Of a DNA stretch of 64,000 nt, positions 3,253-58,188 are shown one piece after another. The translations under genes and the position numbers were made by a program. This DNA is from Escherichia phage MIZ4, in the sequence record OR167180; one strand, 5' to 3'. Numbering within the stretch: position 1 is the stretch's first letter; every line of letters begins with the position of its first letter. Under the pieces are notes generated by a model, which did not search any database, was not told the origin of the DNA, and worked only from the letters and a program-made list of their open reading frames with translations.

Positions 3253-3317
3253 ATAATCACCTCTCACAAATTACATCATTAAAACGGGGAGTATTTACAC
3301 TCCCCACAAACATTATA

Positions 3318-4794: not shown

Positions 4795-4824
4795 AATATT
4801 AATCTCCAAAATAAAATCAGTATA

Positions 4825-5055
4825 TCACGTTCTAAAGTTTGTTGCAACCCCAGCATCAGGGTAATCAAGTTTATCAAAGTTGGGGACCAGCATAAACTCA
4901 TGATGACGACAAGACAACATTTTTGTTATGTCTTCATCGCTGTATATGCTGTTTTTCATATCCCCCATACTAACTACATATTCTTCACCGGAATATAGAT
5001 TGATTAAGGTATACAATTCTAACTCCGGCTGCGTTACTCTGTCAAATGTTAACAT
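4825..5055 (-). CDS. hypothetical protein
   Basis: 76-aa ORF between 46 and 45, start overlaps the gp46 stop. Confidence 0.3.
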   Translation of the reverse strand: MLTFDRVTQPELELYTLINLYSGEEYVVSMGDMKNSIYSDEDITKMLSCRHHEFMLVPNFDKLDYPDAGVATNFRT

Positions 5056-8102: not shown

Positions 8103-8131
8103 AGTATAACGGGGATTTCTCCCCGCGTCAA
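8103..8131 (-). promoter_or_regulatory. sigma70-like early promoter cassette, TTGACG-17-TATACT, spacer palindrome CGGGGAGAAATCCCCG
   Basis: minus strand reads TTGACG CGGGGAGAAATCCCCGT TATACT. Confidence 0.55.
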
Positions 8132-14425: not shown

Positions 14426-14890
14426 TTAACCGATTTTATCAAGTTCGTTTAATGCTTTCTCAGCTTCCTGTATAGCTTGCACCCTTTCCGGCATTTTGTC
14501 AAGAAAATCTTTCAACTCTTCAAAACTGGAGATATGACGCAAGGCATTAGCACCGATAGCCGCATGTGATTTGCATTCAAAGCGAATTTTATAATTATCC
14601 ATAGCCAATTTGAGAAGATCAATTAATTTAGATTCTTCTGGAATAATAATTTCTTCAAATCTGCTACGGTCATGATCCAGAAACCAACAAGATAGACCTA
14701 CATCGGTTGAACTCATATAAGTTCCATCATGAAGATAAACAGACCGCACGTATCCTTTTTTCGCATCAACCGACGCAACTTTAAACGGTAATCGCAGATA
14801 TTTCAAATAATCAACATCATACCATTTAAAAAATTGATTTGCATCTTTTACATCTTTCCACGCATAGGTCTTACCAGCTTCCCATTTCAT
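14426..14890 (-). CDS. member of paralogous repeat-domain family (1 module)
   Basis: MKWEAGKTYAWKDVKDANQF; HDRSRFEEI. Confidence 0.45.
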   Translation of the reverse strand: MKWEAGKTYAWKDVKDANQFFKWYDVDYLKYLRLPFKVASVDAKKGYVRSVYLHDGTYMSSTDVGLSCWFLDHDRSRFEEIIIPEESKLIDLLKLAMDNYKIRFECKSHAAIGANALRHISSFEELKDFLDKMPERVQAIQEAEKALNELDKIG

Positions 14891-15432: not shown

Positions 15433-15942
15433 TCAAATAATTTTCACTGGAATACTATTAACAATCTTGTATTGTACTTGATTGTCAGACCCCCGCCACG
15501 GCTTCTTCGTTGGCATATCTTTAATATAACGCCCATCGATGAACATGTCAACTGATTCTACAATTTTTCTTTGCTCATCATTCAATTGGTCAAGGGTATA
15601 ACCAGACCATAGCCAAATATCTTTATTTGGCATCCATGATTTTACTTCATCGATGATCCGCTGTACACCCTTTAAATTGCGTTTATACAGTGGATCGCCA
15701 CCTAAGAATGTTAGCCCCTGAATAAAATCAGGTCTAAGCAGATCCAGAATCAATCCCATTGTATCATCGGTGAATGGTTCCCCGTTCTTAGGATTGAGTA
15801 GGCTAGCATTAAAGCAACCATCACATGCGTGTGAACATCCGGTAACGTAAAGGGAGACTCTCACTCCCTCACCGTTCACCATATCACAATCTTTAATATC
15901 GGCATAGCGTAGTTTGCCGTATGTATCAGAACTCATATTCAA
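15433..15942 (-). CDS. nrdG: anaerobic ribonucleotide reductase activating enzyme NrdG (radical SAM)
   Basis: radical-SAM CxxxCxxC (CSHACDGC); GLTFLGGDPLY, KDIWLWSGY, KKPWRGSDNQ match T4 NrdG. Confidence 0.85.
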   Translation of the reverse strand: MNMSSDTYGKLRYADIKDCDMVNGEGVRVSLYVTGCSHACDGCFNASLLNPKNGEPFTDDTMGLILDLLRPDFIQGLTFLGGDPLYKRNLKGVQRIIDEVKSWMPNKDIWLWSGYTLDQLNDEQRKIVESVDMFIDGRYIKDMPTKKPWRGSDNQVQYKIVNSIPVKII

Positions 15943-16078
15943 TTACCCCGAACTCGTTTACAATCTGCGCTTTATAGTAACCACCGCGAGATGCTAATAG
16001 ATAAGCTGGGCTTAGGTATTCGTATTCACGGATTTCTACTTGTGCGTTTTCAGTTTCCCAAATCAGTAAAGTCCACAT
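15926..16078 (-). CDS. small hypothetical protein
   Basis: 50-aa ORF starting at the cassette RBS (GGAGAATCAAAT ATG); the ORF-track N-terminal extension runs through the promoter. Confidence 0.3.
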   Translation of the reverse strand: MWTLLIWETENAQVEIREYEYLSPAYLLASRGGYYKAQIVNEFGVIEYEF

Positions 16079-16120: not shown

Positions 16121-16149
16121 AGTATAGGGGATCTCGTGATCCCCGTCAA
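16121..16149 (-). promoter_or_regulatory. early promoter cassette, TTGACG-17-TATACT, spacer palindrome GGGGATC..GATCCCC
   Basis: minus strand TTGACG GGGATCACGAGATCCCC TATACT. Confidence 0.55.
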
Positions 16150-16153
16150 GCAT

Positions 16154-16687
16154 TTATTTTAAATTTTTTCGAATGTATTCAGACCATTCCTTCCCTGTCA
16201 TTTCGGACCCATTCTGGAAACTGAAATATTCATACGGCATCGAGTCAAGATAAAACAGGATCATACATCGCGCCATATAATACCAATCACGATTAAAGTA
16301 AACTACGTTATCGCCAGTACCATCAACCCCTTTATCATAACCATCGCGGGTACGGGCGACCCATTGAATAGTATCAGTTTTCTCACGGATAGTAACAGGT
16401 TCCCAATATCCAGCACATCCAGCATGACCACACGAACAAGTAAGGAAATATTGACCTTTTGCTTTGTTGTCATCCCATTCACGATGAATTGGTTTGATTT
16501 CGTGAAACAGTGCCAAACAATCATGATTATGCAACACTGGCTTACCATCAATCAATGCATGGAATGTATACAAACGACCCGTAGACAAATAGCTATCCTC
16601 ACGCTCAACCAGTTCAATAGCAATCTTTTTAGCTCGTTCTTTGTGTCGTTGTGCTTTACGTTTACGGTTTAATGATTTCATAGTCAC
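16154..16687 (-). CDS. hypothetical protein
   Basis: 177-aa ORF. Confidence 0.4.
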   Translation of the reverse strand: MTMKSLNRKRKAQRHKERAKKIAIELVEREDSYLSTGRLYTFHALIDGKPVLHNHDCLALFHEIKPIHREWDDNKAKGQYFLTCSCGHAGCAGYWEPVTIREKTDTIQWVARTRDGYDKGVDGTGDNVVYFNRDWYYMARCMILFYLDSMPYEYFSFQNGSEMTGKEWSEYIRKNLK

Positions 16688-16698
16688 CTCACATTATT

Positions 16699-17238
16699 TC
16701 AAAGATCGCGATATTGTACATTATGAAAATGAGAACTTGCATTACCAATATTGTAGATAACAAATTCTTCATCCGGCGCTTGCGCTACAAATTGAGTATG
16801 AGCAACCGCTACGACTTTAAAAATACGATCCGTGATCTTGTGCTTAATTTCTGCCCCTACTTCCATAGGAACATATTCATTTGTTTCTGTTTCAGTCGCA
16901 AAACAGCCATCTTCTTCATAAGCACGAACAAATCGGTCGCAATCAGTACGCTTAACAAATTCAAGAGTATATAATTCTCGTGAATTGTCGGTATAGACCA
17001 ATACAGAATTATTATGATAGCGAATCACATACAGGTTATTATCATCGTCAATTACGCAAAAGCTACGGATTCCTTCGCCTTGACTCCAGCAGACATTAAC
17101 CACCGTTCCTCTAATAAAAAAACTTTCCTTTAAATTAAAACTAGTCAATGTGCTAGCGTGCATTTTAACAACAACACCATCACCAATTTCCAGTTTACGA
17201 AGTTTAACTTCTTTGCTCAGTACACAAAACATCATCAT
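16699..17238 (-). CDS. hypothetical protein
   Basis: 179-aa ORF downstream of cassette 17268-17295. Confidence 0.4.
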   Translation of the reverse strand: MMMFCVLSKEVKLRKLEIGDGVVVKMHASTLTSFNLKESFFIRGTVVNVCWSQGEGIRSFCVIDDDNNLYVIRYHNNSVLVYTDNSRELYTLEFVKRTDCDRFVRAYEEDGCFATETETNEYVPMEVGAEIKHKITDRIFKVVAVAHTQFVAQAPDEEFVIYNIGNASSHFHNVQYRDL

Positions 17239-17267
17239 GTTGTCCTCTCGTTGTTTTCGATGTGAGC

Positions 17268-17295
17268 ATTATACATTAGCTAATCATATTGTCAA
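17268..17295 (-). promoter_or_regulatory. early promoter, TTGACA-16-TATAAT
   Basis: minus strand TTGACA ATATGATTAGCTAATG TATAAT, directly after terminator 17311-17332. Confidence 0.55.
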
Positions 17296-17310
17296 CACCC
17301 CAAAACGAAA

Positions 17311-17332
17311 AGCCGACCCTTTCGGATCGGCT
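17311..17332 (-). terminator. rho-independent terminator downstream of nrdD
   Basis: AGCCGATCC GAAA GGGTCGGCT hairpin then T-run on the minus strand. Confidence 0.6.
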
Positions 17333-17337
17333 AAAAA

Positions 17338-19200
17338 TTACATGTGCTTAACGCGGTTTACCATCTCGGAGTGTTTCCCGTGGTTGAATGGACGCAGATC
17401 AACAGATCCAAGATATCCACTAACGCGACGGATAACATTCATCTTTTCCAGATTGTCATTGCCGCAATCAGGACAAACAAAACCAGACTCGGTCGCTCTC
17501 ATTTCCTTAGTAGATCCGCATACATGACATACATCAGAAGGAGTATTAACACCGAAGTAGTGCAATTTATCCATTGCATAATCGACTACAGTTTCAAGAC
17601 CTTTCAGGTTGTTTTTCATGTCTGGGAACTCAACATAAGAGATCATGCCACCGGACGCCAGCCAGTGATAATCTTTCTCAAAGTCGATTTTCTCAAATGG
17701 AGTGACTTTCCGGTCTACGTCAAGGTGGAATGAGTTTGTGTACCAGTCTTTATCGGTAGCACCCTTAACAATACCAAACTGCTCTCTGTCCAGTCGATTA
17801 AATCGATAGCAAAGGCTCTCGGCTGGCGTACCGTAAAGACTAAACCCAAGTCCGGTTTCGTCCTTCCATTTTTCAGTATAATGACGCAAGATCTTAAGAA
17901 TATGTTTACCGTATCGCTGCGCATCTTCCGAATCAAACGGATGAACACCAAACAGGACGCTCAATACCTCATGTAAACCAATATATCCAAGAGAGATACT
18001 AGCGCGACCATCTTTCAACACTTCCAAAATTTCATCGTTTTGATGAATACGGAAAAATGCACCTTCTGTATACAGCACCGGAGCAACATTGGCTTTAGCC
18101 CCTTTTAAAGCGTCTACGCGACTCATGAGCGCATCAAAGCAAATATGCATACGATTAGCTAGCTCTTGTTCGAATAGCTCAATTCTGCGCATTACAGACG
18201 CTTTACCAGCACGACGAGCGGCAATAAGGGCAATACGCGGAAGATTCAGAGTCACAACACCTAAGTTATTACGTCCGTCTAATACTTCCTCGCCTTTCTC
18301 ATTATGCCACACACCCAGGAAGCTACGACAACCCATCGGGCTAACCGGAACACTAGATCCAGTGATGCTACGGTTATTCTTCGCAGAGATATAATCAGGG
18401 TAAAGACGCTTACTAGAACATTCCAATGCAAGTTGCTTAATGTCGTAGTTCGGATCTTCCGGTTTAAGGTTTAATCCTTCTTCTAAGAACATCACCAGCT
18501 TAGGAAACACCGGAGTGATACCATCTTTACCTAAACCTTTAGTTCGAACGTTCAGGATCGCTTTCTGAATCAGTTTTTCTTCCCAGCTAGTACCCATACC
18601 AAAGGTTAAAGTCACAAAAGGCGTTTGACCGTTGGTGGAGAACAAAGTGTTGATTTCATATTCCAACGCTTGATACCCGTCTAGCGTTTCTTTTTCTGTC
18701 TTCTCTTGTGCATAGAGAGTATCAGCTTTGATTCCGTAGGTCTCGGCATCAGCAAGGTGTTTATGATATGTTTTCTCAACGTATGGCGCTAAAACCTGAT
18801 CGATGTTTGCAATTGTGGTCCCGCCATATTGATGACTTGCCACCTGTGCGATAATTTGAGCGGTTACAGCACAAGCAACGCCGATTGATTTCGGACTTTC
18901 GATTTGTGCGCTACCCAATTTAAAACCATTCTCTAACATGTCTTTGAGATTAACAAGACAGCAGTTAGTAAACGGCATAGCGGGTGCATAATCCATATCA
19001 TGATAATGAATGTCACCGTCTACATGCGCTTTATAGATGTGCTCAGGTAACACGGTTTTAGCAATCTGTTTAGACACAGCACCAGCAATCAGATCTCGAC
19101 GTGTCGGGAATGTTCGCGCGTCTTTGTTCGCGTTCTCTTTGCTTACTTCGTTTTCTTTACCCGTTGCGATCTCTGTAATGTCTTTGATTAGTTTTTCCAT
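17338..19200 (-). CDS. nrdD: anaerobic (class III) ribonucleotide reductase NrdD, uninterrupted
   Basis: 620 aa; C-terminal zinc ribbon CHVCG..CPDCG and glycyl-radical motif RRVSGYLG. Confidence 0.9.
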   Translation of the reverse strand: MEKLIKDITEIATGKENEVSKENANKDARTFPTRRDLIAGAVSKQIAKTVLPEHIYKAHVDGDIHYHDMDYAPAMPFTNCCLVNLKDMLENGFKLGSAQIESPKSIGVACAVTAQIIAQVASHQYGGTTIANIDQVLAPYVEKTYHKHLADAETYGIKADTLYAQEKTEKETLDGYQALEYEINTLFSTNGQTPFVTLTFGMGTSWEEKLIQKAILNVRTKGLGKDGITPVFPKLVMFLEEGLNLKPEDPNYDIKQLALECSSKRLYPDYISAKNNRSITGSSVPVSPMGCRSFLGVWHNEKGEEVLDGRNNLGVVTLNLPRIALIAARRAGKASVMRRIELFEQELANRMHICFDALMSRVDALKGAKANVAPVLYTEGAFFRIHQNDEILEVLKDGRASISLGYIGLHEVLSVLFGVHPFDSEDAQRYGKHILKILRHYTEKWKDETGLGFSLYGTPAESLCYRFNRLDREQFGIVKGATDKDWYTNSFHLDVDRKVTPFEKIDFEKDYHWLASGGMISYVEFPDMKNNLKGLETVVDYAMDKLHYFGVNTPSDVCHVCGSTKEMRATESGFVCPDCGNDNLEKMNVIRRVSGYLGSVDLRPFNHGKHSEMVNRVKHM

Positions 19201-19214
19201 TGTATCACCTATGA

Positions 19215-19236
19215 AAAAGCGGGATTTCTCCCGCTC
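19215..19236 (-). terminator. hairpin plus T-run immediately upstream of the nrdD RBS
   Basis: minus strand GCGGGAGAAATCCCGC TTTTTCA then AGGTGA RBS. Confidence 0.4.
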
Positions 19237-19739: not shown

Positions 19740-19769
19740 AATATAATCCTCTCGTTGTTAAGTGGGAGT

Positions 19770-19797
19770 ATTATAGCATACTCCCTTCGCATGTCAA
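19770..19797 (-). promoter_or_regulatory. early promoter cassette, TTGACA-16-TATAAT, palindrome GGGAGTAT..ATACTCCC spanning the -10
   Basis: minus strand TTGACA TGCGAAGGGAGTATGC TATAAT ACTCCC. Confidence 0.55.
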
Positions 19798-20972: not shown

Positions 20973-21003
20973 AATATAATCCTCTCGTTGTTTAGATGGG
21001 AGT

Positions 21004-21032
21004 ATCTTACTACTCCCGTTTCATCATGTCAA
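21004..21032 (-). promoter_or_regulatory. early promoter cassette, TTGACA-17-TAAGAT
   Basis: minus strand TTGACA TGATGAAACGGGAGTAG TAAGAT ACTCCC. Confidence 0.5.
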
Positions 21033-21883: not shown

Positions 21884-21914
21884 TGTTGATTCTCCTTCTT
21901 GATTAGATGGGAGT

Positions 21915-21943
21915 ATTTTACTACTCCCGTTTCATGTTGTCAA
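21915..21943 (-). promoter_or_regulatory. early promoter cassette, TTGACA-17-TAAAAT
   Basis: minus strand TTGACA ACATGAAACGGGAGTAG TAAAAT ACTCCC. Confidence 0.55.
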
Positions 21944-22734: not shown

Positions 22735-23547
22735 TCAATCTACGTTAGTTACATAAACTTCTTGCGTATCAGAAGACTTACCACCTGAACGATCTAGGCA
22801 ATAGGTCTTATTCAACAAGACGCAGTTTAAATCATTCCGCTTGATAAAGTCAAGAAGATGATCATTTACCTTTCCCTTATGATGTGTGACATTACTGATA
22901 CCAAACTGAAAACCACGCGCCATAATAGATTCTACCCACTGATAGAATTTAATCTCTTCTTCTTCACTCCAGAACTTATTATATTCTGCCGATGTGATCC
23001 AATATGGCGGGTCCAAATAAACGAAATCACCTGGCAAGATCTCGATCTCGTCATAGCGACCAGACGTAAAACTGATTCGACCGTCTTTGTTTTCTTCCTT
23101 AAAATTCAGGACACGCTCTACCGCGTTTTCGTTAAAAGTCCGGCGACCAAAATTAGCATTAAATTCTCCCTTCCTGTTATGGCGGTTAATGTTGCTAAAA
23201 CTGTGCTGAATCAGAACAAACAGAGATAGCGGATCTGGATTCTCATTATACTTCTTACGGAATGCCATGTAAGCGTCTTTATCTTCGCGAGACAAACCAT
23301 TTTCGGCAATAATACGCTTGATCGTAGAAACCGGATCAGGACACTCGTCAATCGCTTTGTACGCGTCAATTAAGCGGTGATCATAGTCATTAGCCAGCAC
23401 ATCCCCTTCTACGTACAGAGACACGCTCAAGCCACCACAAAAGGCATCGACAAAGCGGTTATAGTGCTTAGGGAAATACTTACTAACACCAGGCAATAAC
23501 TTTTCCTTATTGCCCGTATAGGGAATTAAACCTAATGCTTTCTTCAT
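22735..23547 (-). CDS. dam: DNA adenine methyltransferase Dam
   Basis: YTGNK, NRFVD.FCGGLSV, catalytic DPPY (FVYLDPPYWI), YNKFWSEE match T4 Dam. Confidence 0.85.
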   Translation of the reverse strand: MKKALGLIPYTGNKEKLLPGVSKYFPKHYNRFVDAFCGGLSVSLYVEGDVLANDYDHRLIDAYKAIDECPDPVSTIKRIIAENGLSREDKDAYMAFRKKYNENPDPLSLFVLIQHSFSNINRHNRKGEFNANFGRRTFNENAVERVLNFKEENKDGRISFTSGRYDEIEILPGDFVYLDPPYWITSAEYNKFWSEEEEIKFYQWVESIMARGFQFGISNVTHHKGKVNDHLLDFIKRNDLNCVLLNKTYCLDRSGGKSSDTQEVYVTNVD

Positions 23548-25105: not shown

Positions 25106-25139
25106 AATATAATCCTCACATCGTTCATTTGATGCGGTC

Positions 25140-25168
25140 ATTATATGATAACCGCATTTTCATGTCAA
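25140..25168 (-). promoter_or_regulatory. early promoter, TTGACA-17-TATAAT
   Basis: minus strand TTGACA TGAAAATGCGGTTATCA TATAAT. Confidence 0.5.
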
Positions 25169-25815: not shown

Positions 25816-25844
25816 AGTATAGGGGATACGTGATCCCCTGTCAA
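25816..25844 (-). promoter_or_regulatory. early promoter cassette, TTGACA-17-TATACT, spacer palindrome GGGGATCACGTATCCCC
   Basis: minus strand TTGACA GGGGATCACGTATCCCC TATACT then conserved leader CATCAAAACGAAAC. Confidence 0.55.
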
Positions 25845-28083: not shown

Positions 28084-28113
28084 ATTTGATTCTCCTTAGT
28101 TGGTATGGTTATC

Positions 28114-28141
28114 ATTATACGGGGATTTCTCCCCGTGTCAA
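28114..28141 (-). promoter_or_regulatory. early promoter cassette, TTGACA-16-TATAAT, spacer palindrome CGGGGAGAAATCCCCG
   Basis: minus strand TTGACA CGGGGAGAAATCCCCG TATAAT. Confidence 0.6.
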
Positions 28142-28144
28142 CAA

Positions 28145-28368
28145 TTAAATGATCTCTGCTTCACCGTTAAGGAAGAAGGACCATGTTTTGTTAGGATAAC
28201 GAAGCGCCCATGATTCAGCAGTTTTAACACCAGCTTCGAACAATTGACGGCTGGTTACTTTAGCCATACCATCTTCGATGGCAACGTTTTCAATAATCAT
28301 CGGGTACTTAGCGCCACGCATGAAACCGAAGCCAGCGGAAGATTTGATAATTTTAACAGTTGCCATTT
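28145..28368 (-). CDS. small paralog family B member
   Basis: MATVKIIKSSAGFGFMRGAKYPMIIENV; start set at the cassette RBS. Confidence 0.4.
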
Positions 28369-29618: not shown

Positions 29619-29646
29619 TTTGGTTCTCCTTTGTTGTCGATGTGTG

Positions 29647-29676
29647 CATTATGCTATACCATATTCCGGTTGTCAA
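29647..29676 (-). promoter_or_regulatory. early promoter cassette, TTGACA-18-ATAATG
   Basis: minus strand TTGACA ACCGGAATATGGTATAGC ATAATG, directly after terminator 29693-29712. Confidence 0.5.
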
Positions 29677-29692
29677 CACCTAAAAACGAAAA

Positions 29693-29712
29693 AGCCACCC
29701 TTTCGGATGGCT
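29693..29712. terminator. bidirectional rho-independent terminator
   Basis: AGCCACCC TTTC GGATGGCT hairpin flanked by A-run and T-run. Confidence 0.6.
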
Positions 29713-29946
29713 TTTTGATTATATTTTATTCACGTCCATTTGTATAGTAGTGTTTGAATCGACCTTTGCTAAACTCGTTAAACATAGTAACCAATTCACC
29801 ATCCCTTTCCAATGATAAACCTTCCTCGTCTTAGACGGGTCTTCCGATTAGGTAGTAATTGAACACGCGAAAGTATGAGGAAGCCAAATAGTTGTGTTAA
29901 TGCTAGTATTCTTTTACTTCTGGTATGCATCCCACAGTGACTAACA

Positions 29947-34260: not shown

Positions 34261-34291
34261 TTTAATACTCCTTTGTTGTTTCGATGGGGGT

Positions 34292-34320
34292 ATATTACTA
34301 CCCCCGATCATGTGTGTCAA
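34292..34320 (-). promoter_or_regulatory. early promoter cassette, TTGACA-17-TAATAT, palindrome GGGGGTA..TACCCCC
   Basis: minus strand TTGACA CACATGATCGGGGGTAG TAATAT ACCCCC then CATCGAAACAAC leader. Confidence 0.5.
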
Positions 34321-34581
34321 CTACTTTTTCAAGATTTTTTTAATTGCATTCCAAAGACCTTTATTCCCAGGTTGTTTTGGTTCTTCGATCAGTGTCCATG
34401 TTCGACCGTCTAAGTGTGCACAATTTTTAAGACAAATAAAAATCTGGTGTCCTTTATCATCACGGATATAACCACTATTCGCAAATCTTTCATGTGGTGT
34501 ATATTCATACAGTGTATTTGGTGTAATATACTTGCGGTTACTATAAGGTGTCATCACATACATCATGGTACTAACTCCCAT
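34321..34581 (-). CDS. small paralog family C member
   Basis: YEYTP..GYIRDDKGHQIFICLKNCAHLDGRTW. Confidence 0.35.
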   Translation of the reverse strand: MGVSTMMYVMTPYSNRKYITPNTLYEYTPHERFANSGYIRDDKGHQIFICLKNCAHLDGRTWTLIEEPKQPGNKGLWNAIKKILKK

Positions 34582-38112: not shown

Positions 38113-38255
38113 GATGCGCCGCTAATCAGACAACCCGCACCAAGTGATTCCCACCAGATCAGAGAAGCGACAACAACACAGAATCCCCATACTACCGCAA
38201 TCACAACATAGACAAGGGTCGCCCACAACATATATTTGTTCATAATAAATCCCAT
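38064..38255 (-). CDS. small membrane protein
   Basis: 63 aa, hydrophobic. Confidence 0.3.
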   Translation of the reverse strand: MGFIMNKYMLWATLVYVVIAVVWGFCVVVASLIWWESLGAGCLISGASCLITGVIVGFLVSED

Positions 38256-38428
38256 TCACCAAACAAATAAGAAAAAAGCCATATCAACAGAAACGAGGCA
38301 ATTGATCCGGCAAGCAAAATGATATTAGAGAATCCGCCGTCTATCCAGGCGACAAAACAGAATACGCCAGTATAGAAGCATAAACCAATTACAAAGCATA
38401 CTATAAGCAACCATAGACAAAACGCCAT
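38240..38428 (-). CDS. small membrane protein
   Basis: 62 aa, hydrophobic. Confidence 0.3.
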   Translation of the reverse strand: MAFCLWLLIVCFVIGLCFYTGVFCFVAWIDGGFSNIILLAGSIASFLLIWLFSYLFGEWDLL

Positions 38429-38650
38429 AGAAAGCCCTCCATCGAGATAAATTAGTGCGGGTAGGGGACTGCACTACCCGCTTTGTTAATCATCGCAGAG
38501 CTTCTTCTAGCGCGATCCCAAACCATCCACAAACAACTCCCATACAGACAGCTACAAGAAGATTCATTCTCTCTTTAGGGATCATTGCAATCATAACAAC
38601 AACCATACAGAAAGCCATTACCATTGAAGTTAACATTTGTTCAACCATTA

Positions 38651-39978: not shown

Positions 39979-40019
39979 TTTGATACTCCTTAGTAGTTCG
40001 TGTTTCGTTTCGATGGGTG

Positions 40020-40049
40020 TATTATGCTATACACCCTCTCGCGTGTCAA
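40020..40049 (-). promoter_or_regulatory. early promoter cassette, TTGACA-18-ATAATA
   Basis: minus strand TTGACA CGCGAGAGGGTGTATAGC ATAATA then leader CACCCATCGAAACGAAACAC. Confidence 0.5.
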
Positions 40050-40705: not shown

Positions 40706-40734
40706 ATTGTAGGGGAGTTATCCTCCCCTGTCAA
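40706..40734 (-). promoter_or_regulatory. early promoter cassette, TTGACA-17-TACAAT, spacer palindrome GGGGAGGATAACTCCCC
   Basis: minus strand TTGACA GGGGAGGATAACTCCCC TACAAT. Confidence 0.5.
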
Positions 40735-40928: not shown

Positions 40929-40973
40929 AATTTGATTCTCCGTTTAAGAAAGTGTGTTTCGTTTCGATGGGTG

Positions 40974-41003
40974 TATTATGCTATAGGCCGGATCTGGTGT
41001 CAA
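40974..41003 (-). promoter_or_regulatory. early promoter cassette, TTGACA-18-ATAATA
   Basis: minus strand TTGACA CCAGATCCGGCCTATAGC ATAATA then leader CACCCATCGAAACGAAACAC. Confidence 0.5.
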
Positions 41004-41036
41004 CAACTTTTTTAAAAAAATTTTAGGCAATAAAAA

Positions 41037-41056
41037 AGCCACTCCGAAGAGTGGCT
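41037..41056 (-). terminator. rho-independent terminator
   Basis: AGCCACTC TTCG GAGTGGCT then TTTTTTATT on the minus strand. Confidence 0.55.
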
Positions 41057-41204
41057 TATAGGGAAGGTAGCGAATCTTCCTTGTCTCCAACCTGCTAGCG
41101 GCCTAGCAAGTGAATGCTTTAGCGTACCGGGTCGCCCATACGCTGTAATAAATGCGGCTAGGTGACGTCCAAATCATTCTAACCGCGCTGTCTTTAGTTC
41201 ACTA

Positions 41205-42488: not shown

Positions 42489-42518
42489 TTGATTCTCCTT
42501 TCGTTTGTTTGTGGGGGT

Positions 42519-42547
42519 ATCTTACTACCCCCGTTTCATGTTGTCAA
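42519..42547 (-). promoter_or_regulatory. early promoter cassette, TTGACA-17-TAAGAT, palindrome GGGGGTAG..CTACCCCC
   Basis: minus strand TTGACA ACATGAAACGGGGGTAG TAAGAT ACCCCC. Confidence 0.5.
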
Positions 42548-42967: not shown

Positions 42968-42997
42968 CATTATGCTATAGTCGTTTATGGTTGTCAA
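42968..42997 (-). promoter_or_regulatory. early promoter cassette, TTGACA-18-ATAATG
   Basis: minus strand TTGACA ACCATAAACGACTATAGC ATAATG then leader CACATATCGAAACGAAACAC; directly after terminator 43015-43033. Confidence 0.5.
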
Positions 42998-43014
42998 CAC
43001 CTAAAAACAAAAAA

Positions 43015-43033
43015 CCCCGAAAAATTTTCGGGG
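43015..43033 (-). terminator. rho-independent terminator
   Basis: CCCCGAAAA/TTTTCGGGG hairpin followed by a T-run on the minus strand. Confidence 0.55.
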
Positions 43034-43040
43034 TATAAAA

Positions 43041-46844: not shown

Positions 46845-46859
46845 TTTAGCACCCTTTAT

Positions 46860-46867
46860 TATAAATA
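46860..46867 (+). promoter_or_regulatory. T4-type late promoter TATAAATA upstream of gene 53
   Basis: exact TATAAATA about 32 nt before the gp53 ATG in the divergent 4/53 intergenic region. Confidence 0.6.
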
Positions 46868-46899
46868 CATAATACTATTTATCAATTGAGGGTGCTAAA

Positions 46900-56665: not shown

Positions 56666-56679
56666 GTGTATGATTTTAA

Positions 56680-56703
56680 AAGCCAATTCGAGAGAGTTGG
56701 CTT
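56680..56703 (+). terminator. hairpin plus T-run after gene 8
   Basis: AAGCCAA..TTGGCTT followed by TTCCATTTTT. Confidence 0.4.
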
Positions 56704-56717
56704 TTCCATTTTTGGTG

Positions 56718-56745
56718 TTGACAATCTTATTTGGTAAGGTATAAT
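56718..56745 (+). promoter_or_regulatory. sigma70-like early promoter cassette on the plus strand inside the late baseplate operon, TTGACA-16-TATAAT
   Basis: TTGACA ATCTTATTTGGTAAGG TATAAT ACACACATCTAAACAACGGAGGATAAATT ATG, leader similar to the minus-strand cassettes. Confidence 0.55.
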
Positions 56746-56774
56746 ACACACATCTAAACAACGGAGGATAAATT

Positions 56775-57032
56775 ATGGCACGTCGTAAATTTACAGATAA
56801 TTGTGAAGCAATTCAGGTATCCCCTTGCGGTTGGGATGTGATCGCGAACGGTGAAAAGATTGGAGAGATCATCGATCATACTCATTCATCACTAGCCGAT
56901 TACACCGATGAACTATGGGAGGGTATCAACTTCATGAATGACACTAAACGATTCAAGACTATCGACGAAGCTATCTATTTTGTGTATAATCCAACTTTCG
57001 GTATGTGGGGAACTAGAAAATGGCACGCGTAA
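56775..57032 (+). CDS. hypothetical protein
   Basis: 85-aa ORF, first gene of the inserted cassette. Confidence 0.35.
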   Translation: MARRKFTDNCEAIQVSPCGWDVIANGEKIGEIIDHTHSSLADYTDELWEGINFMNDTKRFKTIDEAIYFVYNPTFGMWGTRKWHA

Positions 57033-57349
57033 ATATTAAACTGCATTATACAATGGGTAAACCAAAACATCCAATGCATAAAGTGTTTTGGGGCTTGCAT
57101 CTTCAAGAAAAATGGCATGATAACTATTGGTTTTGTGACCATGATAAGAAGTGGCATTCTCAAGATGAAGTTAATGCGATGATGGAACAGGGTATCAAAT
57201 TTAATTACTCTAATTATGACCATAGCATTACTTGTATTCGAAAATTGAAACGGTTTATTCGAAAGAATCCGCAATTTAAAAACTTTGTGTTCTTTATGTC
57301 TCATGTTTATTTGGGGCATAGCGTTACCGTAACAGTAAAGGTTAAATAA
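57020..57349 (+). CDS. hypothetical protein
   Basis: 109-aa histidine/tryptophan-rich ORF. Confidence 0.35.
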   Translation: MARVNIKLHYTMGKPKHPMHKVFWGLHLQEKWHDNYWFCDHDKKWHSQDEVNAMMEQGIKFNYSNYDHSITCIRKLKRFIRKNPQFKNFVFFMSHVYLGHSVTVTVKVK

Positions 57350-58188
57350 TGGCACGACTTTCTAAACAAGAGCAAAAATTACACGATCGGGCGATGGAGT
57401 TGATTAATTCAGATCGTCCATTGACATTTGAAGAAAAAGAATTTTGCTATAACAACTATCATGGCGATGGACTAGGTGGTTCCGGTGCATTCTTTACCCC
57501 AGAATGGCTTGCCTGGGATTTTACCATTGATGCATATTGCACCGGAAAAGTATTAGATCTTTGTGCGGGGATCGGTCGCTTATCTTTTTGTATGTTACAT
57601 CGTTGTAAGCCAGAAAAGATCGTATGCGTCGAACTCAATCCAGAATTTGCGCGGATTGGCAAGCGACTATTACCGGAGGCAGAATGGATCACCAGCGATG
57701 TATTCGAATTTGAGTCAAACGAAAAATTCGATGTGGTGATCAGCAATCCACCTTTCGGTAAAATCAATACTACAGACACAAAGGATGTATTTGAATATAC
57801 TGGCGGTGAGTTTGAATTTAAGGTTATGACGTTAGGCCAGAAGTTTGCCGATGTAGGTTATTTTATTGTTCCTGCTAGTTCCGCTGGGTTTGCTTATTCC
57901 GGCAGACCTTATTATGATGAATCAGTGAAGTCTAATAAATATCTAAAATGGAGCAAACAAACTGGTTTGGTGACTTACGCCGGATGTGGGATCGATACAT
58001 CAATCTATCGCGATGAATGGCATAGTACCAACGTTTTAACAGAAGTGGTTGAGGTTCGGTATTACGAGAAAGAAGCCGTAGAAGCGCCTAAATCACGTCC
58101 CAACGAACAAATAGAAGAAAGTAAGGAGATTACCTTACCGAAACAGGAAAGCGAGTCTGGGACGCTCTCAGATTTGTTTGACATTTAA
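57349..58188 (+). CDS. SAM-dependent N6-adenine methyltransferase (gamma-class motif order)
   Basis: motif X-like GAFFTP, motif I VLDLCAGIGRLS, motif IV ISNPPFG, in that order. Confidence 0.65.
   Translation: MARLSKQEQKLHDRAMELINSDRPLTFEEKEFCYNNYHGDGLGGSGAFFTPEWLAWDFTIDAYCTGKVLDLCAGIGRLSFCMLHRCKPEKIVCVELNPEFARIGKRLLPEAEWITSDVFEFESNEKFDVVISNPPFGKINTTDTKDVFEYTGGEFEFKVMTLGQKFADVGYFIVPASSAGFAYSGRPYYDESVKSNKYLKWSKQTGLVTYAGCGIDTSIYRDEWHSTNVLTEVVEVRYYEKEAVEAPKSRPNEQIEESKEITLPKQESESGTLSDLFDI

Follow-up and report, generated by a model that had tools for sequence, protein, structure and literature searches.

PeSLs (promoter-early stem-loops) were described, and in part tested, in 2010 in RB49, the type phage of its genus, where about 51 copies were counted, with 52 for phi1 (Arbiol et al., 2010; Genome Biol Evol 2:140; PMC2839356). 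Their stem-loops have G-tracts followed by C-tracts, a pattern written Gn-loop-Cn for RB49 and phi1 (Comeau et al., 2014), and occupy five positional subclasses, of which the commonest lie between the −35 and −10 hexamers or overlap the −10 (Arbiol et al., 2010); these two subclasses are the layouts that the initial annotation of the present DNA had called types A and B. RB49 early promoter predictions are consistent with mapped 5′ ends. Two PeSLs have been assayed in reporters: the stem-loop of PeSL211/210 cut lacZ read-through about as strongly as rrnB T1, and PeSL206/205, as a promoter and unaided by any phage factor, yielded ~13,000 Miller units in E. coli DH5alpha (Arbiol et al., 2010; PMC2839356).

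Two other known systems share parts of this design. Canonical intrinsic terminators also place a GC-rich stem of 6–9 bp, often with a GAAA loop, just past a stop codon, but hairpins nested in promoters lack the run of five or more U, what follows their stem being the −10 box in type A and AUCGAAAC in type B. The “morons” of lambdoid phages are likewise small genes with their own promoter and terminator, to which the plus-strand cassette at 56678–56746, in the late baseplate block, may be compared; PeSLs differ from them in being a repeated, conserved family of linkers that fuse promoter and terminator and for which a part in homologous exchange has been proposed.

How do the inverted repeats nested in the promoters of the window (the whole 64-kb stretch of Escherichia phage MIZ4 DNA analysed here) compare with these systems? 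They are very probably PeSL cassettes of RB49-type T4-like phages, each serving as a promoter and as a terminator of the upstream transcript, and the feature is thus an already known one. The phage belongs to the same genus as RB49 and phi1, and the resemblance extends to the promoter, a near-consensus TTGACA-N17-TATAAT that has A-rich DNA upstream of it, to the Gn-loop-Cn element that lies between the two hexamers or straddles the −10, and to the ~45–50 copies per genome placed at module boundaries; there is no essential difference, the phage being a more recent isolate and the focal loop reading ACGA here and GCGA in most relatives. We infer that the ORF numbers of Arbiol et al. (2010) are RB49 locus tags, which identifies PeSL206/205 and PeSL211/210 in the RB49 record. 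The RB49p211/210 intergenic region then reads TTGACA GGGGATCACGTATCCCC TATACT, which in its core is identical to the cassette that the window has at 25844 and is similar to the focal cassette, and the RB49p206/205 intergenic region reads TTGACA GGGGATCGGTGATCCCC TATAAT, a type A element with two GATCs; given this identification, both reporter-tested RB49 sequences are type A GGGGATC cassettes. The analysis supports the 2010 description with three observations: nested hairpins and stand-alone terminators exclude each other, stems carry compensatory changes, and both ends of a divergent two-gene module fall exactly on cassettes.

The focal cassette and its relatives

The 4-kb stretch around the focal cassette matches Escherichia phage MIZ5 (OR167181.1), a Krischvirus of the RB49 group of T4-like phages, at 100% identity, and RB49, Phi1, JSE, and ~55 other Krischvirus phages at 98–99%. 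The window corresponds to positions 96001–160000 of the MIZ5 record, except for one additional A in a homopolymer at ~43014; up to ~46.8 kb its genes, for the most part small early ones of unassigned function, are encoded by the minus strand. A census of cassettes of the form aaaaagtTG-TTGACA-N16-18-TAnnAT-acacccatcgaaac...GGAG...ATG over 160 kb of the 165.5-kb MIZ5 genome returned 43 credible early-promoter cassettes, which cluster at record positions 31–47 kb, 71–73 kb, and 112–139 kb, mostly 5′ of hypothetical proteins. Orthologous cassettes were compared across nine genomes taken from GenBank phage records. A query of IMG/VR with NrdG and the cassette pattern returned a few Krischvirus contigs plus two others, and no Rfam family reached its gathering threshold anywhere in the 64-kb window.

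The focal promoter core lies on the minus strand at 16121–16149: a −35 TTGACG (16149–16144) and a −10 TATACT (16126–16121) are separated by a 17-nt spacer and preceded by the A/T-rich aaaaaatttaaaataaatgc. Nested in it at 16127–16144 (minus strand) is the type A hairpin GGGGATC-ACGA-GATCCCC, with a 7-bp stem, a 4-nt loop, and a GATC in each arm; the first G of the stem doubles as the final base of the −35. The predicted minimum free energy of this hairpin is −13.9 kcal/mol (z −2.6) when it folds as RNA and −8.1 kcal/mol (z −2.7) when it folds as DNA. Its stem is unchanged in all nine genomes, with ACGA, GCGA, or TCGC as the loop. The stop codon (16156–16154) of the co-oriented upstream gene (16154–16681, minus strand) is located 9 nt 5′ of the hairpin. 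On the other side, the focal promoter would drive a 50-aa DUF7170 gene (15926–16078, minus strand), whose ATG at 16078 follows a Shine-Dalgarno GGAG by ~8 nt.

The initial annotation had placed GC-rich perfect palindromes in the spacers of otherwise AT-rich promoters. At 10 of the 10 positions it named, the sequences are present, on the minus strand and inside σ70-type promoters, and both recurrent layouts, type A between the hexamers and type B across the −10, are real. The promoter assignment is likewise correct: the sites carry σ70-type hexamers, and the focal element is picked up by a promoter scan (10 of 12 hexamer positions match) and annotated in the GEC-3S GenBank record, where the orthologous site is entered as a promoter whose −35 and −10 signals occupy the corresponding positions. 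The word “palindrome” has to be corrected: these are inverted repeats with arms of 6–8 bp around non-palindromic loops of 3–6 nt. So does one spelling, since the copy at 25822, given as GGGGATC..GATCCCC, is actually GGGGAT-CACGT-ATCCCC and contains one GATC instead of two. The repeat spellings in the initial annotation also mix the plus and minus strands.

Could such hairpins arise by chance in DNA of this composition? Perfect GC-rich hairpins (stem of at least 6 bp, loop of 3–8 nt) number 33 in the window, ~3-fold more than the 10.1 ± 3.0 (maximum 18) found in 200 dinucleotide-preserving shuffles, and 16 of the 33 are intergenic, an ~8-fold concentration given that intergenic DNA makes up 5.9% of the window. 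A chance origin, of the hairpins as of the spacer GATCs treated below, is ruled out by the shuffle controls.

The cassettes share a compact anatomy that agrees with PeSLs point by point. Each fills a gap of 54–79 nt between two co-oriented early genes, from the stop codon upstream to the Shine-Dalgarno and start codon downstream, and within that gap combines an A-rich upstream region, a near-consensus σ70 promoter, one GC-rich stem-loop, and the ribosome-binding site of the next gene; σ70 hexamers, a 16–18-nt spacer, and an A/T-rich upstream region are common to the focal element and the 43 cassettes in 160 kb. The Gn-loop-Cn element is in or next to the promoter: nested (type A or B) in 23 of the 43 cassettes, just upstream in 9, and just past the −10 in several. 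The window has 12 nested hairpins, each of which starts 6–21 nt past the upstream gene's stop codon, and cassette hairpins end 24–48 nt ahead of the downstream ATG. The family is repeated and concentrated in hyperplastic regions, before small genes of unassigned function, and its members coincide with replacement boundaries between close relatives.

Besides the focal cassette, the catalogued type A PeSLs, all on the minus strand, are TTGACG CGGGGA-GAAA-TCCCCG T TATACT at 8103–8131 (hairpin 8110–8125, with a GNRA loop); TTGACA GGGGAT-CACGT-ATCCCC TATACT at 25816–25844, the one that shares its core with RB49 PeSL211/210; TTGACA CGGGGA-GAAA-TCCCCG TATAAT at 28114–28141; and TTGACA GGGGAG-GATAA-CTCCCC TACAAT at 40706–40734. 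The type B PeSLs, also on the minus strand, begin with GGGAGTAT-GCTATA-ATACTCCC at 19770–19797, whose hairpin (19764–19785) spans the −10 TATAAT and in which the upstream stop codon, TGA, falls inside the −35. GGGAGTA-GTAAGA-TACTCCC at 21004–21032 (hairpin 20998–21017) spans a −10 TAAGAT and GGGAGTA-GTAAAA-TACTCCC at 21915–21943 (hairpin 21909–21928) a −10 TAAAAT; GGGGGTA-GTAATA-TACCCCC at 34286–34320 has a GATC directly 5′ of its stem that is missing in RB49 and SSG23, and GGGGGTA-GTAAGA-TACCCCC lies at 42513–42547. Two type B elements are additional to those of the initial annotation: GCGGTTAT-CATATA-ATGACCGC at 25134–25168, whose sense strand has a U.G wobble, and GGGTGTAT-AGCATA-ATACACCC at 40015–40049.

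Transcription through the hairpins

The initial annotation reasoned that repeats located upstream of a transcription start must act at the level of DNA, not RNA. This argument is valid solely for the transcript that the cassette itself initiates, and it fails as a general statement: upstream transcripts cross the hairpin, and the PeSL211/210 stem-loop terminates in a reporter. Because neighbouring genes are co-oriented and the hairpin follows the stop codon by 6–21 nt, transcripts from upstream promoters carry it at their 3′ end; at the focal site, where the distance is 9 nt, the transcript of the upstream gene enters the hairpin. In the mechanism that we propose, polymerase arriving from upstream promoters would copy the hairpin into RNA as the 3′ terminus of the message from the upstream gene, where it would terminate or attenuate read-through and probably also protect the 3′ end; separately, the host σ70 polymerase would find in the same DNA a strong early promoter.

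The distribution of hairpins bears on this mechanism. In 9 of the 43 cassettes a stand-alone hairpin with a T-run ends 12–32 nt before the −35, and in none of the 43 does such a terminator occur together with a nested hairpin (Fisher p = 3e-4). Four of these arrangements, all on the minus strand, consist of a stand-alone terminator followed by an early promoter: at 17268–17332, AGCCGATCC-GAAA-GGGTCGGCT plus a T-run (17311–17332) precedes a promoter at 17268–17295, a pair that the GEC-3S annotation also records as terminator plus promoter; at 29648–29716 the terminator occupies 29689–29716 (GAAA loop, T-run); at 40975–41057 it occupies 41036–41057 (UUCG loop, T-run) and the promoter has a GATC in its spacer; and at 42969–43034 it occupies 43014–43034. 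The promoters of all four are free of nested hairpins. Several of the remaining 11 cassettes have a hairpin and T-run just past the −10 instead, as at 3286–3305 and at record positions 28363, 80132, and 87150. Stand-alone terminators share the style of the nested hairpins, a G-run, a GAAA loop, and a C-run: the canonical intrinsic terminator at 19218–19235, AGCGGGA-GAAA-TCCCGCT-TTTTC, may be set beside CGGGGA-GAAA-TCCCCG at 8110.

Judged from the alignments, it is base pairing, not arm sequence, that is under selection. The arms are of at least eight kinds (GGGGATC, GGGGAG, CGGGGA, GGGAGTA, GGGGGTA, GGGTGTAT, GCGGTTAT, and GGGGATAT), and the type B stems, counted in two separate groups since a joint MAFFT alignment shifted two registers against each other, covary. 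In the 8-bp group every cell is paired and three of eight pairs show compensatory changes; the covariation score is 0.518, shuffles give 0.169 and attain 0.518 in 0 of 500 cases, and slid controls collapse; in the 7-bp group one pair runs through A-U, G.U, and G-C. Orthologs covary as well: GGGTGTAT/ATACACCC in MIZ5 is GGGGATAT/ATATCCCC in RB49. Across the nine genomes stems are mostly invariant and unpaired spacer bases vary freely; a break is tolerated in the ECD7 ortholog of cassette 21032, the stem of which is disrupted, and loop identity, GNRA included, is loosely held, with loops inverting between orthologs.

Which nucleic acid does the pairing serve? One-sided stem changes in the type B groups are G.U on the sense strand, which favours RNA as far as so few changes can; stem mismatches on that strand are four G.T against two A.C, numbers too small to settle the matter. 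Folding energies of whole segments are alike on the two strands (−10.9 kcal/mol sense, −10.7 kcal/mol antisense, p = 0.73, 43 cassettes), so that whole-segment folding cannot tell an RNA-level from a DNA-level reading.

The nested hairpins have the GC-rich stem of intrinsic terminators, and the canonical U-tract, about five or more U in the 8 nt directly past the stem, is absent from them: the tail reads TATACTAT at the focal site and ATCGAAAC or ATCTAAAC elsewhere, which in type A is the −10 box (UAUACU...) and in type B AUCGAAAC or AUCUAAAC. A terminator scan of the window called none of the nested hairpins. Hairpins of this kind, those of type B above all, may therefore attenuate instead of terminate, or mainly protect 3′ ends. 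We infer nonetheless that every nested hairpin, especially of type B, terminates in vivo, termination having been reported for one stem-loop only, the type A element of PeSL211/210 (Arbiol et al., 2010; PMC2839356).

A role on RNA that involves no termination, in which nested hairpins, chiefly those of type B, would act as 3′-end protectors or as processing or pause signals, is an unlikely but serious alternative. The type B tails and the silence of the terminator scan speak for it, and the position just past the stop codon and the sense-strand G.U pairs suit it equally. Against it, the sole reported experiment recorded a drop in read-through, albeit with a type A stem, and those hairpins that lie downstream of the −10, and are thus free of its constraint, carry T-runs, which argues that termination is the function selected where sequence permits.

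Terminators on the opposite strand were also considered, as the Makalu_001 record annotates them at or next to two nested cassettes. They were rejected: there are no genes on that strand there, the T-rich stretch of type A begins at least 8 nt past the stem, and the antisense tail of type B has ~4 T in 8.

Exchange at module boundaries

Repeated ~45–50 times, the cassettes would also offer homology patches for swapping gene modules between phages. The focal cassette marks such an exchange: MIZ5 and JSE are 100% identical up to ~16160, 40–90% identical over 16170–17310, and 100% identical again from 17342, so that the divergent interval, a two-gene module, has its ends exactly at the focal cassette and the one that follows. 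At position 28141 a different cassette is present in five of the five relatives compared there, and a g38-like tail-fibre gene is annotated beside it in three of them (RB49, JSE, and Makalu_001). Cassette cores have been exchanged between loci, and in three cases the hairpin at one locus is the exact inverse of that at the orthologous locus: GCGA against TCGC at the focal site, GCC against GGC at 25844, and ACC against GGT at cassette 34540. The inversions point to template switching mediated by the hairpin, or to recombination between its arms. Module boundaries, core exchange, and inversions fit the role in “modular shuffling” that earlier work had proposed; the literature searched, both PeSL papers included, contained neither the exact inversions between orthologous loci nor the excess of GATC in the spacers.

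Might the repeats then act chiefly as DNA, extruded into hairpins or cruciforms that serve as recombination or template-switch sites for module shuffling? This is improbable as the principal function, though compatible with a role on RNA. The three exact inversions, the divergent modules that end at cassettes, and the cores swapped between loci all fit; the phage encodes endonuclease VII and the SbcCD-like gp46/47, which might process such structures, and formation of mini-circles between PeSLs has been reported. Arms of 6–8 bp, however, are short for stable cruciform extrusion. Shuffling, moreover, requires just the ~50 bp of shared cassette sequence and not a hairpin, and extruded DNA gives no reason for the hairpin to be missing at just those cassettes that have a stand-alone terminator.

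GATC sites and arm sequences

The initial annotation pointed out that several repeats contain GATC and that the phage encodes Dam, and it raised the possibility of methylation-dependent promoters. Both observations hold. The gene at 22735–23547 (minus strand) encodes a D12-class N6-adenine methyltransferase (Pfam MethyltransfD12, E 2e-29), a full-length homolog and ortholog of the GATC methyltransferase T4 Dam (PDB 1yfj, E 6e-65), and is annotated dam in the RB49 and JSE records; in the window, GATC is found in the spacers at 16149, 25844, 28434, 34320, and 41003. It is also more frequent in spacers than in the genome at large, with 15 sites against 3.3, or ~4.5-fold: 12 of the 43 cassettes have a spacer GATC, where shuffling within spacers gives 2.2 (12 is attained in 0 of 5000), and GATC alone among 4-nt palindromes is enriched there, besides TATA, which adjoins the −10. 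The initial annotation had named a cassette GATC frequency no higher than the background as grounds for refutation, and the observed frequency does not refute it. The sites start mostly at spacer position 3–5, also in cassettes that lack a type A stem, and taken together are located at positions 3–6 or 11, ~−26 to −23 of the promoter. The motif is otherwise unremarkable, with 354 copies in 64 kb (observed/expected 1.06) and an under-representation in intergenic DNA of the window as a whole (12 against 21 expected).

It is very unlikely that this excess reflects selection, with methylation by phage or host Dam tuning either a subset of early promoters or the way the cassettes recombine, and the functional form of the idea, in which Dam methylation of spacer or arm GATCs modulates the strength or timing of early promoters, for example between fully methylated parental and newly replicated DNA, deserves no greater credence. 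Dam-sensitive promoters are familiar from the IS10 transposase promoter pIN, from phage Mu mom, which is controlled via OxyR, and from pap, controlled via Lrp. The PeSLs resemble them in having GATC within the promoter region of a Dam-methylated genome, the methyltransferase being of T4 type and encoded by the phage itself; the size of the excess and its recurrent position add to the case, as do three cassettes (31482, 32764, and 44740) in which GATC has been kept between MIZ5 and RB49 despite changed flanks. In pIN, mom, and pap, however, the site is conserved and belongs to a hexamer or to the binding site of a regulator, and the cassettes hold no conserved GATC so placed: theirs sits in the spacer, outside the hexamers and any known regulator site, is missing from most cassettes (31 of 43, including 16 of the 23 with nested hairpins), and turns over.

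Among phages that are 97–99% identical, GATCs are conserved only within stems. The site at 34320 is present in three of six genomes, 41003 has been lost in SSG23 and 31984 in RB49, 29676 has been gained in SSG23, and the second GATC of cassette 25844 is found in four of nine. Within a stem, a GATC in one arm automatically yields one in the other, the motif is common genome-wide, and the cassettes are paralogs that exchange sequence, so that GATC counts are not independent. The two-GATC promoter of PeSL206/205, if the locus tags identify it correctly, is very strong in DH5alpha already, and that strain is dam+. Neither GATC nor methylation is mentioned by Arbiol et al. (2010) or Comeau et al. 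(2014). A function of spacer GATC would give a regulatory role to the non-essential Dam of T4-type phages, which the present evidence does not favour.

Least credible of all is the proposal, also made in the initial annotation, that the repeats are operators for a dimeric, sequence-specific regulator of early promoters: inverted-repeat symmetry and a location inside promoters would suit one, and binding of a recombination protein to GGGG...CCCC had been put forward as a speculation (Arbiol et al., 2010; PMC2839356), but an operator would conserve the sequence and position of its half-site, and here the arms, of at least eight sequences, have no half-site in common, compensatory substitutions preserve their pairing and not their sequence, and the centre of the repeat and the length of its loop move relative to the hexamers. 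The same style of hairpin, moreover, serves outside promoters as an ordinary terminator, and a nested copy is never present where a terminator already exists.

Inversion and apparent exchange at early-promoter cassettes

In promoter-early stem-loop (PeSL) cassettes, an early promoter is combined with a GC-rich stem-loop that probably ends the transcript of the upstream gene. At three orthologous hairpins (16127-16144, 25821-25839, and ~34512-34540 of the MIZ5 record), the whole inverted repeat is exactly inverted between phages. In the focal hairpin (16127-16144), the arms GGGGATC and GATCCCC enclose the loop GCGA in 7 genomes vs TCGC in OZ035808; in the hairpin of cassette 25844 (25821-25839), Makalu_001 and SSG23 share the loop GCC, and one IMG/VR contig has GGC; and cassette 34540 (~34512-34540) carries ACC in MIZ5 (locus L007), whereas RB49 (locus L023) has GGT. 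Judged from these sequences, the inverted orthologous hairpins look like a "flip-flop" that would arise via template switching or if the two arms recombined.

The focal cassette and its next neighbor enclose two genes (16154-16681 and 16699-17238) which, across 16170-17340, are only 40-90% identical between MIZ5 and JSE, while the flanks of this segment are 100% identical on either side; a module of two genes was apparently swapped between two PeSLs. At 28084-28144, all five relatives compared (RB49, OZ035808, JSE, Makalu_001, and SSG23) have a different, hairpin-less cassette with a T-run ahead of it; an extra g38-like tail-fiber/adhesin gene is annotated beside this cassette in RB49, JSE, and Makalu_001, and MIZ5 lacks it.

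In Makalu_001 (locus L019), the depositors annotated "terminator" features at 14789-14816 and 18689-18735, on the opposite strand. The two intergenic gaps concerned hold the PeSLs orthologous to cassettes 21943 and 25844 of the window: terminator predictors seem to detect these hairpins, yet assign them to the wrong strand.

GATC in promoter spacers

GATC is 4-5-fold over-represented in the spacers between the -35 and -10 hexamers and is present in 12 of the 43 early-promoter cassettes (in the window, in 16149, 25844, 28434, 34320, and 41003), mostly starting 3-5 nt past the -35. The excess, which is not mentioned in the PeSL papers, extends to cassettes without the GGGGATC stem; the over-representation is confounded by cassette paralogy and by sequence exchange among cassettes. 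Relevant to any DNA-modification model in Krischvirus, phages TB34 and SAP are 99.96% identical but differ in DNA chemistry: cytosines are canonical in TB34, whereas SAP carries glucosyl-methyl-cytosine-type modifications (PMC13390438).

Other intergenic elements and an early insert

Strong structure (MFE -60 to -80 kcal/mol) is predicted for four unannotated gaps of 246-328 nt (4795-5041, 29619-29946, 38244-38489, and 40929-41204), which could harbor unannotated small genes or non-coding RNAs; no Rfam family matches them at the gathering threshold.

At position 43014, a homopolymer run is one A longer in the window than in OR167181.1, and coordinates past this point equal the record position minus 96000 plus 1. 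The intergenic region at 46845-46899, between a minus-strand gene for head closure and a divergent plus-strand gene for the baseplate wedge, is bounded by a 15-bp inverted repeat, TTTTAGCACCCTT...GAGGGTGCTAAAA, whose AT-rich core contains a TATAAATA-like late-promoter sequence. Inside the late baseplate gene block, a canonical terminator and a consensus early promoter, TTGACA-16-TATAAT (56678-56746, plus strand), precede a pair of small genes of unknown function together with one for a second methyltransferase (56775-58188 in all, plus strand); the methyltransferase (57349-58188, plus strand) is MTS/Eco57I-like by Pfam. From its sequence, the 56678-58188 region is a predicted early-expressed insert inside a late module.
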